A DNA stretch of 64,000 nucleotides from Escherichia coli (GTDB taxonomy: Bacteria > Pseudomonadota > Gammaproteobacteria > Enterobacterales > Enterobacteriaceae). Under the pieces are notes generated by a model. The model was given only the letters and a program-made list of their open reading frames with translations, did not search any database and was not told the DNA's origin. Below, piece by piece: positions 3,387-10,564 of the stretch. The stretch lies in NCBI RefSeq assembly GCF_051903065.1, contig NZ_CP178438.1. The stretch is one strand, 5' to 3'. Position 1 is the first letter of the stretch, and the number at the start of each line of letters is the position of its first letter. Both the position numbers and the translations under genes were made by a program.

Positions 3387-4172
3387 TTAGCGCACTAAAT
3401 AACCGCCATCAACCACTAATAAATGCCCGTTGACATAATTCGATGCCGGACTTGCGAGGAATACGGCTGCGCCCATTAAATCCTGAGTATCGCCCCAACG
3501 GTTTGCTGGAATATGATCAAGAACGCGCTGATTGGTTTCTGGATTACTGCGTGTCGCCAGCGTAATATCTGTTGCATAATAGCCAGGGGCGATACCATTT
3601 ACCTGAATATTATATTGACCTAGTTCATCACAATAAGCTTTGGTGAACCCGGCAAGAGCATGTTTAGTGGCAGAATATGCAGGTGACCATTGTCCACCTA
3701 AGTAAGAGAACAATGAACAGATATTAATGATTTTACCGCTTTTCTGCGGGATCATAATTTTTGCTGCTTCGTAGCTTAACTCAAATGCGGCGGTCAGGTT
3801 CACATCAATCATTGGATCCCAGTCGGCACGACCGAAGTCCAGCACCTTATTCAGCTTACAAATACCGGCATTGTTAACCAGAATATCGACGGTACCGAAA
3901 CGTTCGCAACAGGCGGCGATTATCTTCTGCGGCGCGCCTTCTGCGGTGATATCCACCTGCATGAAGTCCACCTCAACACCCTGTTTTTCAATCATTTCCT
4001 TTGTTTCGCCGTTATCTTTGACAAAACTTGGAATAAAGACATTTGCGCCTGCTTTGGCCAACGCCATGGCAAATGCCTGGCCTAAACCGCTATTCCCGCC
4101 GGTAACAATTGCGGTTTTACCTTTCAGGGAGAAAAAATCCATTGAGAACGCATTGAGAGATTCGATTGACAT
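3387..4172 (-). CDS. ygcW: Short-chain dehydrogenase/reductase (SDR) family oxidoreductase
   Basis: TGGNSGLG Rossmann motif and YxxxK catalytic motif (YSATK); start placed at MSIESLNAF (4172) instead of the longer ORF-track start. Confidence 0.85.
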   Translation of the reverse strand: MSIESLNAFSMDFFSLKGKTAIVTGGNSGLGQAFAMALAKAGANVFIPSFVKDNGETKEMIEKQGVEVDFMQVDITAEGAPQKIIAACCERFGTVDILVNNAGICKLNKVLDFGRADWDPMIDVNLTAAFELSYEAAKIMIPQKSGKIINICSLFSYLGGQWSPAYSATKHALAGFTKAYCDELGQYNIQVNGIAPGYYATDITLATRSNPETNQRVLDHIPANRWGDTQDLMGAAVFLASPASNYVNGHLLVVDGGYLVR

Positions 4173-4419
4173 AGTTAGCTCCAATTTCCGTAAGGCAAAA
4201 AAAAAGAAAGGTAACTTCCCCCGCAAGAGGGAAGTTACCTTTCTCATTATCTCTGGTAACTGGAGATAATTTTTAGCATAAGGGCATAACTGCTAATGTG
4301 ATCGTAATCACAGTGTAATATTCGTATTGTCAAATAATTTTAAAAAGCAGAAGCGTGATTACTCTCACACAACACCTCTGCTTTCCATGTTATTTATTAT
4401 TTCAATTACTAGAGACCTG

Positions 4420-4466
4420 AGAAAAGTAATCCACCTGAAAGGGCGGCTTACTTTTCTCTTTTTTTT
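4420..4466 (+). terminator. Terminator-like hairpin plus T-tract in the 5' leader of yqcE
   Basis: Inverted repeat gagaaaagtaa ... ttacttttctc followed by 9 T residues, ending about 25 bp before the yqcE ATG. Confidence 0.35.
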
Positions 4467-4490
4467 GTCTATTACAAATGGGAATACGAT

Positions 4491-5768
4491 ATGCAACACA
4501 ACTCATATCGCCGTTGGATAACCCTCGCGATAATTAGTTTTAGCGGCGGCGTTAGTTTCGACCTGGCTTATTTACGTTATATTTATCAAATTCCCATGGC
4601 GAAATTTATGGGATTCAGCAATACCGAGATAGGTTTAATAATGAGTACCTTTGGTATTGCAGCTATTATTCTTTATGCCCCCAGCGGCGTTATTGCTGAT
4701 AAATTCTCACATCGCAAAATGATTACTTCCGCGATGATCATTACCGGATTACTGGGTCTGTTAATGGCAACGTATCCACCGCTGTGGGTAATGCTCTGTA
4801 TTCAGGTCGCCTTTGCGATAACGACGATTTTAATGCTGTGGTCGGTGTCGATTAAAGCCGCATCGTTGCTTGGCGATCATAGCGAGCAAGGGAAAATTAT
4901 GGGCTGGATGGAAGGGCTGCGCGGCGTCGGTGTAATGTCGCTGGCGGTGTTTACCATGTGGGTCTTTTCTCGCTTTGCACCGGATGACAGCGCTAGCCTG
5001 AAAACGGTCATAATTATCTACAGTGTGGTTTACATCTTGTTGGGGATTCTGTGCTGGTTTTTTGTTAGCGATAACAACAACCTGTGCAGTGCCAATAACG
5101 AAGAAAAACAGTCATTCCAGCTTAGCGACATCCTGGCCGTTTTGCGCATCAGCACCACCTGGTATTGCAGCATGGTGATTTTTGGCGTCTTCACCATCTA
5201 CGCCATTCTGAGTTACTCCACCAACTATCTGACCGAAATGTATGGCATGTCGCTGGTGGCGGCGAGCTACATGGGGATTGTGATCAACAAAATCTTCCGC
5301 GCGCTGTGCGGCCCACTTGGCGGCATTATCACCACCTACAGTAAAGTGAAATCCCCTACCCGCGTGATCCAAATCCTTTCCGTACTCGGCCTGCTGGCGT
5401 TAACTGCCCTGCTCGTCACGAACTCTAACCCGCAATCGGTCGCGATGGGGATTGGCCTGATTTTACTGCTGGGATTCACCTGTTACGCCTCACGCGGGCT
5501 GTACTGGGCCTGCCCTGGCGAAGCGAGAACACCGTCTTACATTATGGGCACCACGGTAGGTATTTGTTCGGTGATTGGATTCCTGCCGGATGTCTTCGTT
5601 TACCCGATTATCGGCCACTGGCAGGACACCCTGCCCGCAGCAGAAGCCTACCGCAACATGTGGCTGATGGGCATGGCGGCGCTTGCCATGGTGATTGTCT
5701 TTACCTTTTTGCTGTTCCAAAAAATTCGTACTGCTGATATCGCCCCCACAACGGCTAACAGCAAGTAA
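4491..5768 (+). CDS. yqcE: MFS-family transporter
   Basis: 425-aa polytopic membrane protein; position and size match yqcE. Confidence 0.85.
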   Translation: MQHNSYRRWITLAIISFSGGVSFDLAYLRYIYQIPMAKFMGFSNTEIGLIMSTFGIAAIILYAPSGVIADKFSHRKMITSAMIITGLLGLLMATYPPLWVMLCIQVAFAITTILMLWSVSIKAASLLGDHSEQGKIMGWMEGLRGVGVMSLAVFTMWVFSRFAPDDSASLKTVIIIYSVVYILLGILCWFFVSDNNNLCSANNEEKQSFQLSDILAVLRISTTWYCSMVIFGVFTIYAILSYSTNYLTEMYGMSLVAASYMGIVINKIFRALCGPLGGIITTYSKVKSPTRVIQILSVLGLLALTALLVTNSNPQSVAMGIGLILLLGFTCYASRGLYWACPGEARTPSYIMGTTVGICSVIGFLPDVFVYPIIGHWQDTLPAAEAYRNMWLMGMAALAMVIVFTFLLFQKIRTADIAPTTANSK

Positions 5769-5794: not shown

Positions 5795-7273
5795 ATGTCG
5801 AAGAAATACATCATAGGGATTGATGGCGGAAGTCAGAGCACAAAAGTGGTGATGTACGATCTGGAAGGTAACGTGGTTTGCGAAGGCAAAGGTTTATTGC
5901 AGCCGATGCACACGCCAGATGCCGATACCGCAGAACATCCTGACGACGATTTATGGGCATCATTATGTTTTGCCGGTCACGATTTGATGAGTCAGTTTGC
6001 CGGGAATAAAGAAGATATTGTCGGTATTGGTCTGGGATCCATCCGTTGCTGCCGTGCGTTATTGAAAGCCGATGGCACGCCAGCTGCGCCATTGATTAGC
6101 TGGCAGGATGCACGCGTAACGCGTCCCTACGAACACACTAATCCTGACGTGGCATATGTCACCTCTTTTTCGGGTTATCTAACGCATCGCTTAACCGGCG
6201 AGTTTAAAGACAATATCGCCAACTATTTTGGTCAGTGGCCAGTGGATTATAAGAGCTGGGCATGGAGCGAAGATGCTGCGGTAATGGAGAAGTTTAATAT
6301 CCCTCGTCATATGCTGTTTGATGTGCAAATGCCTGGCACCGTCCTCGGACATATCACACCACAAGCCGCACTGGCGACACATTTCCCGGCAGGGCTGCCG
6401 GTTGTTTGTACCACCAGTGATAAACCGGTAGAAGCTCTGGGAGCCGGATTACTGGATGATGAAACGGCGGTGATTTCTCTTGGCACCTACATCGCGCTGA
6501 TGATGAACGGTAAAGCACTGCCGAAAGATCCGGTGGCGTACTGGCCGATTATGTCTTCTATACCGGAAACATTGCTGTATGAAGGGTACGGTATCCGTAA
6601 AGGCATGTGGACGGTGAGCTGGCTACGCGACATGTTAGGCGAGTCGTTAATTCAGGATGCCAAAGCACAGGATCTTTCACCGGAAGATTTGCTCAACAAA
6701 AAAGCTTCTTGTGTGCCGCCTGGCTGTAATGGTCTGATGACGGTGCTGGACTGGCTGACCAACCCGTGGGAACCCTACAAACGTGGGATTATGATCGGCT
6801 TTGATTCCAGCATGGATTACACATGGATATATCGTTCGATACTGGAAAGCGTGGCGCTGACGCTGAAGAACAATTACGACAATATGTGTAATGAAATGAA
6901 TCACTTTGCAAAGCATGTGATCATTACTGGCGGCGGTTCGAACAGCGATCTATTTATGCAAATTTTTGCCGACGTGTTCAACCTTCCGGCACGCCGTAAC
7001 GCCATTAACGGTTGTGCAAGTCTGGGGGCAGCGATCAATACGGCGGTAGGTCTGGGGCTATACCCGGATTACGCAACGGCTGTCGACAAAATGGTTCGCG
7101 TGAAAGATATCTTTATGCCTGTTGAGAGCAATGCCAAACGCTACGACGCGATGAATAAAGGTATTTTCAAAGCCCTAACCAAACATACTGATGTGATCCT
7201 GAAAAAATCGTATGAAGTGATGCATGGGGAATTGGGGAATGCGGATTCGATCCAGAGCTGGTCGAATGCGTAA
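5795..7273 (+). CDS. ygcE: FGGY-family carbohydrate kinase
   Basis: 492 aa; N-terminal IGIDGGSQSTK actin-fold ATPase motif; RBS aggag upstream. Confidence 0.85.
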   Translation: MSKKYIIGIDGGSQSTKVVMYDLEGNVVCEGKGLLQPMHTPDADTAEHPDDDLWASLCFAGHDLMSQFAGNKEDIVGIGLGSIRCCRALLKADGTPAAPLISWQDARVTRPYEHTNPDVAYVTSFSGYLTHRLTGEFKDNIANYFGQWPVDYKSWAWSEDAAVMEKFNIPRHMLFDVQMPGTVLGHITPQAALATHFPAGLPVVCTTSDKPVEALGAGLLDDETAVISLGTYIALMMNGKALPKDPVAYWPIMSSIPETLLYEGYGIRKGMWTVSWLRDMLGESLIQDAKAQDLSPEDLLNKKASCVPPGCNGLMTVLDWLTNPWEPYKRGIMIGFDSSMDYTWIYRSILESVALTLKNNYDNMCNEMNHFAKHVIITGGGSNSDLFMQIFADVFNLPARRNAINGCASLGAAINTAVGLGLYPDYATAVDKMVRVKDIFMPVESNAKRYDAMNKGIFKALTKHTDVILKKSYEVMHGELGNADSIQSWSNA

Positions 7274-8976: not shown

Positions 8977-9554
8977 TGGTTTATCCCCGCTGGCGCGGGG
9001 AACTCGTACTGACGGATAAAAATAATACCTTTTGCGGCGGTTTATCCCCGCTGGCGCGGGGAACTCGTCAACGTTTTTCATGTGGGCATGAGTTGGGGCG
9101 GTTTATCCCCGCTGGCGCGGGGAACTCTATTCGGCCTCGTGCTGGTCGTGACAAAATACCGGTTTATCCCCGCTAGCGCGGGGAACTCTGGCGATATTGC
9201 CTACCGCAACAAAGAAAATACGGTTTATCCCCGCTAGCGCGGGGAACTCATCCACGAATCCAGTGCAAATGAGTTTGTTGGCGGTTTATCCCCGCTAGCG
9301 CGGGGAACTCATTGTGACTACCACCGATAACCCCGCAACCACCGGTTTATCCCCGCTAGCGCGGGGAACTCCTGCATTCGCCTGCGGTTATCAGATCGCT
9401 AAACGGTTTATCCCCGCTAGCGCGGGGAACTCGCTGCCATTACTTCCCGCCAGCGTTGCTCTGGCGGTTTATCCCCGCTAGCGCGGGGAACTCGCAGAGA
9501 ATCGTTCGATTGCCCCTACATCTTCCGGTTTATCCCCGCTGGCGCGGGGAACTC
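8977..9554 (-). CRISPR. CRISPR array, type I-E (E. coli-type) repeats, 10 repeats / 9 spacers
   Basis: 29-bp repeat cggtttatccccgctggcgcggggaactc (reverse complement of GAGTTCCCCGCGCCAGCGGGGATAAACCG) with an exact 61-bp period; nine 32-bp spacers at 9006, 9067, 9128, 9189, 9250, 9311, 9372, 9433, 9494; the first repeat has t instead of c at its first base. Confidence 0.97.
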
Positions 9555-9760: not shown

Positions 9761-9892
9761 ACAGAATTTGTAGAGAATGATAATGATTAGTCCAGGATGG
9801 GCAAAATGGAGGTTTTTCAGAGGCGACAAAGAATATAAATGAGTAGAAGTCTTTACAGGTTCCACCCATTTATAACGCTTATAAAAGTTTAA

Positions 9893-10564
9893 TCAGGCAA
9901 TATTTAGATATTTATGTGTTTGCATCGACAAACGCCAATTACGCGCAATGCAGATTTCAATGCACAATCGTGTGGCATCATCCTTTTGGCTAATCGGCTG
10001 CAGTGCAATGACTCGCGGTTTATCATCGGTCAGCGTTGCCAATAGTTCATCCAGTGCTTCAATATCGCGTACGCGCCCCACTGGATGCTTGATTTCGTTG
10101 GCTCGCTCCAGTGCCTGTGACAACACTTCATAGCCGCCGCGCATGTTCAGCTTTGGCGATACGGTAACCCAGGTATTCGGTGTGCAGCGTACCTCATGAG
10201 TACCACTGGTTTCGATCTGGCAGCTAAAACCGTTCTTTTCGAGCAGATCAGTCAGTGGTAGCAAATCATGAATGCAAGGCTCACCACCCGTAATCACCAC
10301 ATGCCGCGCGGTGTATCCCTGGCGACTAATGACAGCCAACAAGTCTTCACTGCTCGCCGCCCCCCACTTATCACTCTCTTTGGTCTTCGCCAGAATGCTG
10401 AAAAGGGAGACTTCCCGATCCTCAAGCTTTTCCCAGGTGTGTTTGGTGTCGCACCAGGCACAGCCAACCGGGCATCCCTGTAAACGAATAAAAATGGCGG
10501 GGACGCCGGTAAAGTAACCCTCACCTTGCAGGGTCTGGAACATCTCGTTAATCGGGTACTGCAT
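9893..10564 (-). CDS. queE: 7-carboxy-7-deazaguanine synthase (radical SAM)
   Basis: 223 aa, MQYPINEMFQTLQGEGYFTGVPAIFIRLQGCPVGCAWCDTKHTW with the CxxxCxxC radical-SAM cluster motif. Confidence 0.9.
   Translation of the reverse strand: MQYPINEMFQTLQGEGYFTGVPAIFIRLQGCPVGCAWCDTKHTWEKLEDREVSLFSILAKTKESDKWGAASSEDLLAVISRQGYTARHVVITGGEPCIHDLLPLTDLLEKNGFSCQIETSGTHEVRCTPNTWVTVSPKLNMRGGYEVLSQALERANEIKHPVGRVRDIEALDELLATLTDDKPRVIALQPISQKDDATRLCIEICIARNWRLSMQTHKYLNIA

Follow-up and report, generated by a model that had tools for sequence, protein, structure and literature searches.

A conserved intrinsic terminator in the yqcE leader of Escherichia coli, its mirror-image twin before ygcW, and a probable link to the GlpP-type protein YgcP

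In the divergent ygcW-yqcE region of Escherichia coli, a stable hairpin followed by a run of T residues lies directly in front of yqcE, the first gene of the yqcE-ygcE operon. We analyzed this element within a 64,000-nucleotide stretch of the chromosome (contig NZ_CP178438.1; hereafter the window), in which a position equals the K-12 NC_000913.3 position minus 2896101. The hairpin and its U-tract are almost certainly the intrinsic terminator of the yqcE leader RNA, and a homologous terminator stands in mirror image before ygcW. Termination at the yqcE leader is very likely conditional. At a probability we put at roughly two in three, the condition is set by YgcP, the product of a gene in the same cluster, through antitermination of the type described for the glycerol-3-phosphate (G3P)-responsive protein GlpP.

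Positions 4419-4466 read GAGAAAAGTAA-TCCACCTGAAAGGGCGGC-TTACTTTTCTC-TTTTTTTT, in which GAGAAAAGTAA (4419-4429) and TTACTTTTCTC (4448-4458) form an outer stem of exactly 11 bp; above it, an inner stem of CC.CCU paired with GGG.GG is capped by GAAA (hairpin B, Table 1). A preliminary description of this DNA had the stem length right, although the stem starts at 4419 rather than 4420, and it counted nine T residues where the uninterrupted run is eight (4459-4466); nine is reached only by including T4457, which precedes C4458. As plus-strand RNA, hairpin B folds at -20.5 kcal/mol compared with -9.2 +/- 2.7 kcal/mol in 200 dinucleotide shuffles (z -4.25), none of which folded as stably (0/200), so that its folding energy is not weak. 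A pattern made of its 22-base core is expected to have 0 matches in shuffles of the 64-kb window. A simple terminator scan overlooked hairpin B on the plus strand because its loop exceeds the 8-nt limit of that scan. The T8 run stops 24 nt short of the yqcE ATG (4491) on the sense strand, in agreement with the earlier estimate of about 25 bp. Thus a GC-containing, stable hairpin is followed by a U-tract and, as detailed below, by a Rho-insensitive 3' end in vivo. The order of elements is that of an attenuator, with a transcription start site (TSS) at 4404/5, the terminator at 4419-4466 and the start codon at 4491. No ATG, GTG or TTG start occurs between the TSS at 4404 and the terminator, and the sole ATG of the leader (4478) lies downstream of the U-tract; because the leader has no upstream open reading frame (ORF), ribosome-dependent attenuation by a leader peptide is unsupported.

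Published differential RNA sequencing (dRNA-seq), northern and Term-seq data show termination at hairpin B; dRNA-seq and Term-seq were among the checks proposed in the preliminary description. Romero (2014) mapped Class I (primary) TSSs at U00096.2 2898527-8 on the forward strand and 2898384-8 on the reverse strand, and listed two potential novel small RNAs (sRNAs), the northern-verified ecr2775(u+) (2898527-2898590, 63 nt; Table S5) and ecr2774(u+) (2898315-2898388, 73 nt), which were catalogued without function as 'simple stem-loop, perhaps REP-like' (PMC4681348). The abundance of ecr2775 differs between LB and M9-glucose (PMC4681348). Using Term-seq on cells in LB, Adams (2021) recorded a 3' end at K-12 2900556(+) with 1557 reads, a Rho score of 0.61 ('No') and an intrinsic-terminator score of 11.4, and another at 2900311(-) (window 4210) with 40640 reads, a Rho score of 0.50 and an intrinsic-terminator score of 15.8, against a threshold of 3 for the last score (PMC7815308, supplementary files 1 and 3). 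Both ends are classed there as 'orphan' and 'upstream ORF', and the main text is silent on them. By their TSSs, ends and strands, ecr2775, ecr2774 and the orphan ends are the same molecules as the two leaders. Window positions of the 2014 TSSs and RNA ends depend on the shift from U00096.2 to U00096.3, which, given the indels between these two K-12 versions, is +1978 at this position and fits purine start sites. With this shift, ecr2775 runs from 4404/5 to 4467 (+) and ecr2774 from 4265-4261 to 4192 (-). The preliminary description had offered an attenuator of yqcE-ygcE and the terminator of a short unannotated transcript as alternatives. Both hold and are one and the same thing, because a primary TSS 15 nt upstream of the stem, an RNA of about 63 nt and a Rho-independent 3' end identify the short transcript as the terminated yqcE leader. 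The supplements of the Cappable-seq and SMRT-Cappable-seq studies contain zero entries in the ygcW-yqcE region, and the RefSeq annotation carries neither short RNA.

Four features went unnoticed in the preliminary description: the twin on the ygcW side, the CRP sites, how deeply the element is conserved, and its link to ygcP, the antiterminator gene. The divergent ygcW (ATG at 4172, minus strand) and yqcE (ATG at 4491, plus strand) are separated by 318 bp, with two base differences from K-12, at 4225 and 4317. On the minus strand, hairpin A folds at -33.9 kcal/mol (z -7.7) and is followed by T9, and this terminator stops 24 nt before the ygcW ATG. The Class I TSS cluster of ygcW falls at 4261-4265 by the same conversion. 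When each arm is read toward its own gene, the two are homologous (local alignment score 43 versus 17.3 +/- 2.6 in shuffles, z 9.8). The intergenic region is a large imperfect palindrome: two CRP-dependent promoters stand back to back in it, and transcription from either one soon meets a leader terminator homologous to the other.

Between the two arms, CRP site 1 is the sole perfect TGTGA-N6-TCACA of the window by pattern search. It had been predicted earlier, is bound in enterotoxigenic E. coli by chromatin immunoprecipitation sequencing (PMC4287617) and binds CRP in vitro with a dissociation constant of 1.7 nM (PMC12871828). A second, candidate site lies closer to yqcE; yqcE-ygcE is listed as Crp-activated (PMC8085971), a listing that is not specific to site 2. 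Both promoters have class II CRP geometry (centre near -41.5), at -42.5 for yqcE and -39.5 to -43.5 for ygcW, with occupancy known for site 1. TGn-extended -10-like elements are found at the expected spacing, and the TGnTA element is kept at equal spacing in orthologous arms. Two promoters suggested by a consensus scan and by a published SELEX (systematic evolution of ligands by exponential enrichment) study were rejected: TTCTCA-18-GATAAT at 4241-4270, proposed for yqcE, is excluded by the mapped primary TSS at 4404/5, and TTCTCA-16-AATAAT at 4423-4396 on the opposite strand is excluded by the mapped TSSs at 4261-4265. Beside hairpin A, at 4246-4270, the region of the ygcW TSS contains a further inverted repeat of 8 bp, ATTATCTC / GAGATAAT. 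It coincides in part with a conserved AGAGA box and may simply follow from that box, or it could be a protein-binding DNA palindrome.

A second structure in the leader competes with the terminator. The 5' end can form a candidate antiterminator helix, P1, around the purine-rich loop AGAGACCUGAGAAA. Across homologues, leader positions 1-7 (AGUUACY) pair with RGUAACU, and the first 27 nt follow the consensus 5'-AGUUACY-AGAGA-N-GAGAAA-RGUAACU. P1 and the terminator both claim 4425-4430, and in the alignment they share columns 27-33; the RGUAACU bases are the top of the terminator 5' arm together with the first base of the inner part. Across homologues 93.7% of P1 cells are paired, compared with 15-54% when the partners are slid. 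Two of its pairs switch between alternative forms. Pair 2/32 changes from G-C to A-U (71 versus 28 sequences), the A-U form being that of the yqcE side in Enterobacteriaceae, and pair 7/27 changes from U-A to C-G (74 versus 21 sequences), the C-G form being that of the ygcW side. Column 27 covaries with both of its partners, with 73 sequences reading UAU at 7/27/61, 21 reading CGC and 6 having other triples. This three-way covariation is modest but is the pattern that comparative sequence data would be expected to show for mutually exclusive structures. The overlapping, mutually exclusive structure of an attenuator is thus found in P1, on about two compensatory events. As long as the 3' arm is still to be transcribed, P1 is the minimum free energy structure of the nascent RNA. 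In the complete leader the terminator reaches -21.6 kcal/mol versus -6.5 kcal/mol for P1 in copy B, and -34.2 versus -15.6 kcal/mol in copy A. Because the terminator is favored by 15-19 kcal/mol once complete, termination should be the default and a factor would be needed to hold P1. Default termination fits the abundance of the short RNAs in LB.

The leader motif is widely conserved. Loci encoding YqcE relatives were taken from 59 species; 57 loci contain a ygcW-yqcE intergenic region, and all of these Enterobacterales loci (57/57) have the element in both arms. Its layout is TGnTA..., about 12 nt, (c)AGTTACYAGAGA, N3-6, GAGAAAAGTAAC, a variable stem-loop, TTRCTTTTCTC, T7-10, G, 20-35 nt and ATG. 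Covariance models R1 and R2, built on 100 distinct copies, gave 123 matches in 1.27 Mb and 114 in 1.19 Mb, respectively, and the R1 sequence matches were reproduced by R2. All matches are leaders of ygcW-, yqcE-, ygcU- or kinase-like genes, two per enterobacterial locus, and the weaker R1 matches are merely the opposite strand of the same hairpins. Copy B (4404-4467) scores 72.1 bits and copy A (4195-4261) 77.3 bits; a model scan found no third copy upstream of ygcN, elsewhere in the cluster or elsewhere in the window. The published TSSs and the 63- and 73-nt RNAs coincide exactly with the limits of the motif. The motif of about 65 nt also occurs in Vibrionaceae, Bacillaceae and Clostridia. 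Of 5426 E. coli genomes, 5063 carry the element. The median number of places per genome is two, every one belongs to this locus and no copy is on a plasmid; no annotation underlies the matches. No Rfam family reaches its gathering score for the motif. The best Rfam match, to the SurA sRNA (26.9 bits, E 4e-5), was set aside as it falls far under the gathering score of 100, with all others weaker, and it probably reflects two terminal hairpins in AT-rich sequence.

Base pairing in the terminator is maintained through compensatory change. In a MAFFT alignment made blind to structure, 92.8% of cells in the 17-bp terminator helix are paired, versus 54-70% with the partners slid; double-sided changes number 73 compared with 26.5 +/- 3.9 in shuffles (0/500 reaching that count), and eight pairs show compensatory changes. 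A structure-aware alignment agrees, with paired values of 92.8-93.6% over 100-107 distinct homologues. The sequence of the outer stem is near-invariant and the apical part is free, with 83 distinct inner segments. Near-invariance of the outer stem points to recognition beyond pairing. Swapping inner stems discriminated only moderately (own -9.25 versus swapped -6.2 kcal/mol); conservation extends to the CUUCC/GGAAG base of the inner stem, which accounts for this.

Several loci depart from the common arrangement. In Klebsiella spallanzanii and Citrobacter youngae an insertion of about 125 bp separates terminator B from the yqcE ATG and leaves the motif intact; the terminator-to-start distance is 150 nt and the intergenic length 445-447 instead of 318. 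The inserted sequence (..GTGAGTGAACGCAGCCAACGCATCAGCAACTTGAAGTATGAAGGGTATA..) resembles an ERIC/IRU (enterobacterial repetitive intergenic consensus/intergenic repeat unit) element. In Limnobaculum eriocheiris just 130 bp separate ygcW from yqcE, and they contain one chimeric hairpin with A9 and T9 on its flanks, usable in both directions (locus L040, about 9892-9964), with no room for promoters. Its sister species (L035) has identical arms, and the arrangement is either a deletion between two identical arms or an assembly collapse of the palindrome. The inner stem-loops of Enterobacillus, Limnobaculum and Budvicia (L033, L035 and L059) are identical within each genome and differ between genera, which suggests gene conversion (concerted evolution) between the inverted copies. 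In Photobacterium gaetbulicola a lower-scoring copy (43-45 bits; L066, 16299-16390) lies upstream of an MFS gene and has a second CCTTTCTCTTTTT segment about 25 nt further downstream, as though the 3' arm and U-tract had been duplicated in tandem.

The protein that accompanies the motif belongs to a family of antiterminators. ygcP lies at K-12 2894196-2894771, about 1.3 kb before the start of the window and about 6 kb from the leaders, in the same cluster. Its product is a full-length PF04309 'glycerol-3-phosphate responsive antiterminator' (E 1.4e-62) and aligns end to end with the solved structure of Listeria GlpP, 3KTS (E 1.2e-27). ygcP is found within 10 kb of the motif in all enterobacterial loci with enough flanking sequence save one (L045), where a homologue is on another contig. 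ygcP itself has been relocated to just downstream of the kinase gene in Serratia, Erwinia and Pantoea, yet is still linked. Beyond Enterobacterales, homologues sharing 55-62% identity with YgcP occur in Thalassobacillus, Clostridium sediminicola, Vibrio hannami and P. gaetbulicola, and their genes (4/4) adjoin the same set of genes for an SDR (short-chain dehydrogenase/reductase), an FGGY kinase, an FAD oxidase, an electron-transfer flavoprotein (ETF) and a transporter. In these four distant loci the motif heads SDR, oxidase, kinase or MFS genes, scores 43-70 bits and begins 6-7 nt after a TATAAn box. A metagenome scan by RNA pattern alone returned seven matches, five of them true elements by the model. 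Four of these five have a YgcP-type gene on the same contig; on one contig, 1.3 kb long, the motif and a gene for a 56%-identical protein are 200 bp apart. The fifth contig is too short to be informative, and the two non-elements lack the hairpin.

The closest known system is that of GlpP. In Bacillus subtilis, GlpP with G3P overcomes 'inherent terminators' right downstream of the glpD, glpFK and glpTQ promoters, and each glp leader has a GlpP site 5' of its terminator (PMC9604022; PMC10573289). We compared the ygc leaders with seven canonical glpF and glpD leaders from Priestia, Bacillus sp., Lysinibacillus and Paenibacillus. In all seven, AGUU(A/C)AUA follows the -10 box at a distance of about 7 nt; after a spacer come (G)GAGAAU and then (G)GAGAGACCA, which is the terminator 5' arm, and a U-run ends the leader layout. 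The ygc leaders carry a conserved AGUUACYAGAGA box 5' of the terminator, present in two copies in E. coli and in one or two in other taxa. Both kinds of leader have AGUUA at +1 (mapped for ygc, predicted for glp), GAGA tracts of which the second forms the terminator 5' arm, and a U-run. Both systems have a PF04309 protein in the cluster, a terminator directly downstream of the promoter that is repeated at several operons, and an operon of a transporter and an FGGY kinase (glpF-glpK versus yqcE-ygcE); catabolite control acts at initiation in both, through CRP for ygc and CcpA for glp. The differences are also clear. YgcP is just 31% identical to a canonical GlpP, in contrast to its 55-62% identity to the YgcP-type proteins of Firmicutes and Vibrionaceae, and the RNA sequences diverge (AGUUACYAGAGA..GAGAAAAGUAAC for ygc versus AGUUAAUA..GGAGAAU.GGAGAGACCA for glp). 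The ygc host is Gram-negative, and its two targets form a mirror-image pair around a CRP-bound centre. Unlike the glp genes, those under ygc control (SDR, FAD oxidase, ETF and MFS) are not glycerol genes, and the ligand is therefore probably not G3P. The ygc element would work like a GlpP target and is very probably its evolutionary cousin, although its sequence sets it apart as a distinct RNA family that pairs with a distinct protein subfamily. Somewhat less firmly than for E. coli itself, we favor the wider view that the ygc motif is a cross-phylum class of cis-regulatory RNA, recognized by YgcP proteins that form a subfamily of their own among the GlpP antiterminators.

Antiterminators of the BglG/SacY type, which act on the ribonucleic antiterminator (RAT) as in the E. 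coli bgl operon, are alike in outline, as a short, weak 5' hairpin overlaps the terminator 5' arm and would need a protein to win. They differ in having CAT-PRD domains rather than the TIM-barrel-like fold of PF04309, and the ygc leaders have no RAT sequence, no phosphorylation logic dependent on the phosphotransferase system and no match in Rfam. In Listeria monocytogenes the canonical glpP lies between mutL and pflB. Because no glp genes are adjacent, its targets must be elsewhere in the genome, in contrast to the tight clustering of YgcP-type genes.

The circuit we propose would work as follows. Transcription would initiate at the CRP-dependent, class II-type yqcE promoter at 4404 and by default stop at terminator B, releasing ecr2775 and leaving yqcE-ygcE off; the mirror copy A would act likewise on the divergent ygcW operon. 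Ligand-loaded YgcP would bind and stabilize the 5' element (P1) on the nascent RNA, and P1 held in this manner would block formation of the terminator and allow read-through into both operons. The ligand is probably the phosphorylated product of the YgcE kinase. That identity is suggested by analogy with GlpK and GlpP, the pairing of an MFS transporter with an FGGY kinase mirroring glpF-glpK.

A number of observations weigh against this model. The covariation in P1 represents only about two independent evolutionary events. The motif, ygcP and the catabolic genes travel as one cluster, which confounds their co-occurrence, and any cluster-encoded or cluster-specific factor would fit it equally well. 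The searchable literature yielded no experiments on YgcP and the leaders and no functional work on ygcP. We found no dataset from induced conditions in which a change of read-through with a signal could be seen. On canonical GlpP leaders the ygc models score insignificantly (10.8 and 5.7 bits with R1, none with R2), and the resemblance to proven GlpP targets is architectural, not family-level. Finally, Term-seq puts the 3' ends (4455 and 4210) at the stem bases or within them, 4-12 nt ahead of the U-runs (4-11 nt for terminator B), unlike the coverage-defined RNA ends of 2014, which reach through the U-tracts. To account for this offset we assume 3' exonucleolytic trimming or, for the perfect 19-bp stem A, cleavage by RNase III, at the cost of an extra assumption.

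Other explanations account for parts of these data. If ecr2775 and ecr2774 were stand-alone, trans-acting sRNAs, the hairpin would merely be their terminator and yqcE would be transcribed independently. Both are catalogued candidates with primary TSSs, ecr2775 is seen on northern blots, and a hairpin with a U-tail resembles the 3' ends of Hfq-type sRNAs. We nonetheless consider this unlikely, as no further TSS of yqcE or ygcW is reported between the terminators and the start codons (PMC4681348), 24 nt separate the RNA ends from the ATGs, a cluster gene in the same orientation always follows directly on the motif even where gene order is shuffled, and it is the terminator and P1, not a single-stranded stretch of the seed type, that concentrate the conservation. 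A secondary trans role for a by-product RNA is compatible with the antitermination model. It is about equally unlikely that the hairpins are constitutive and unregulated, either as leaky terminators damping two strong CRP promoters or as mRNA-stabilizing 5' stem-loops. Such a role would agree with the abundance of terminated RNA in LB, most evident in the reads for arm A, and GlpP-type leaders are reported to affect mRNA stability, going by the title of Glatz 1996 as cited in PMC9604022. Pairing alone would suffice for it, however, leaving unexplained the near-invariant 5' box and outer stem across phyla, the three-way covariation that keeps a competing helix and the strict association with an antiterminator gene.

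Slightly less probable still is a metabolite riboswitch, in which P1, the conserved purine-rich loop and the inner hairpin would make a small aptamer that directly recognizes the substrate of the pathway, the terminator would be the expression platform and YgcP would have another role. A conserved 5' domain, mutually exclusive P1 and terminator helices and covariation give a riboswitch-like layout, and in every phylum the motif goes with the same set of catabolic genes. Against this, the conserved domain spans just about 30 nt, its one structured element is a helix of 5-7 bp, no Rfam family matches, and the same layout in glp leaders needs the GlpP protein (PMC9604022). An antiterminator-family protein with no other known target also stands alongside the motif in all four distant loci and in four of the five true metagenome matches. 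The least credible alternative is a dispersed repeat of the REP (repetitive extragenic palindromic), ERIC or MITE (miniature inverted-repeat transposable element) type. The extended palindromes, the large inverted repeat formed by the two arms and the identity of the arms in some species, which suggests gene conversion, are reminiscent of such elements. Their confinement to a median of two places per E. coli genome, all at this locus and none on plasmids, their placement and direction with respect to genes, which are constant throughout an order and in other phyla, and the absence of other copies from 1.2 Mb of flanking sequence make this reading scarcely tenable. Compared with these four explanations, control of the two terminators by YgcP is the reading we prefer.

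Table 1. Positions in the window of the leader terminators, their promoters and the genes they precede
Feature	Position	Strand	Basis and details
ygcW, SDR oxidoreductase	3387..4172	-	Annotation, Pfam and NCBIfam; first gene behind twin terminator A
ygcW leader RNA, motif copy A = ecr2774 (73 nt)	4195..4265	-	Hairpin 4205-4245, T9 4197-4205, Term-seq 3' end 4210
CRP site 1, TGTGATCGTAATCACA	4297..4312		Perfect consensus half-sites; centre 4304.5 = -39.5 to -43.5 of ygcW TSS cluster
Candidate CRP site 2, CGTGATTACTCTCACA	4354..4369		Pattern search; centre 4361.5 = -42.5 of yqcE TSS
Putative extended -10-like element TG-T-TATTTA of yqcE promoter	4388..4396	+	Position relative to TSS 4404
yqcE leader RNA, ygc-type leader motif copy B = ecr2775 (63 nt)	4404..4467	+	dRNA-seq, covariance model
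Candidate antiterminator helix P1	4405..4430	+	AUUACU 4405-4410 with AGUAAU 4425-4430 around purine-rich loop
Terminator hairpin B	4419..4458	+	Outer stem 4419-4429/4448-4458, inner stem 4431-4436/4441-4446, GAAA loop 4437-4440
Term-seq RNA 3' end, K-12 2900556	4455	+	3 nt inside 3' arm of hairpin B
U-tract (T8) of terminator B	4459..4466	+	Sequence; T7-10 run kept in all homologues
yqcE, MFS transporter	4491..5768	+	ORF, annotation, PF07690; first gene behind terminator B
ygcE, FGGY-family sugar kinase	5795..7273	+	ORF, PF00370/PF02782; second gene of yqcE-ygcE operon

Further observations concern the surroundings of the leaders. The whole ygcW-yqcE region is absent from about 7% of complete E. 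coli genomes. In strain PK8277 (NZ_CP080133.1) a remnant of the intergenic region persists between two IS1 copies; ygcP is truncated there, ygcQ through ygcW are deleted and yqcE has lost its N-terminus. The convergent ygcP-ygcQ spacer of K-12 contains a REP-like palindrome, GCCTGATGCGACGCT..GCGTCTTATCAGGCCTAC (locus L003, 6800-6880). Downstream of ygcE, a Type I-E CRISPR array occupies 8977-9554 on the minus strand, with 10 repeats at a 61-bp period. Its repeat, GAGTTCCCCGCGC(C/T)AGCGGGGATAAACCG, was detected by a repeat pattern search (0 expected by chance), and the array was not picked up by Tandem Repeats Finder.

The short RNAs, their ends (2014 and 2021) and the CRP site are already published. 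Those publications neither read the sRNA candidates and orphan ends as attenuators nor connect them with ygcP or CRP, and they make no comparative analysis. We did not find the attenuator reading, the mirror design, the conserved motif, the competing helix or the YgcP link in the searchable literature, which leaves most subscription journals outside it. The finding introduces no new principle; it is a well-defined circuit for an orphan K-12 gene cluster together with an RNA motif missing from databases. Catabolic islands that remain uncharacterized in E. coli K-12 include the ygc cluster (ygcNOPQRSUW-yqcE-ygcE), which is not transcribed under laboratory conditions. One regulatory circuit, of CRP-dependent initiation followed by YgcP-dependent antitermination at an RNA of about 65 nt, would account for the two sRNA candidates and the two orphan 3' ends, which had lacked an explanation. 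YgcP thereby gains a candidate RNA target, and a leader read-through reporter could screen for the inducer and hence for the pathway substrate. GlpP-terminator pairs already serve as portable switches in B. subtilis (PMC9604022), and an orthogonal antiterminator-terminator pair native to E. coli could have practical use. If the YgcP reading is true, the motif would be a compact, conserved, protein-responsive terminator missing from Rfam, and E. coli K-12 would possess a second, non-BglG system for protein-mediated antitermination of intrinsic terminators. The 318-bp palindrome, with its symmetric pairs of CRP class II promoters and antiterminator targets, would then place the two divergent operons of this orphan catabolic pathway under the joint control of a single cAMP signal and a single metabolite signal.

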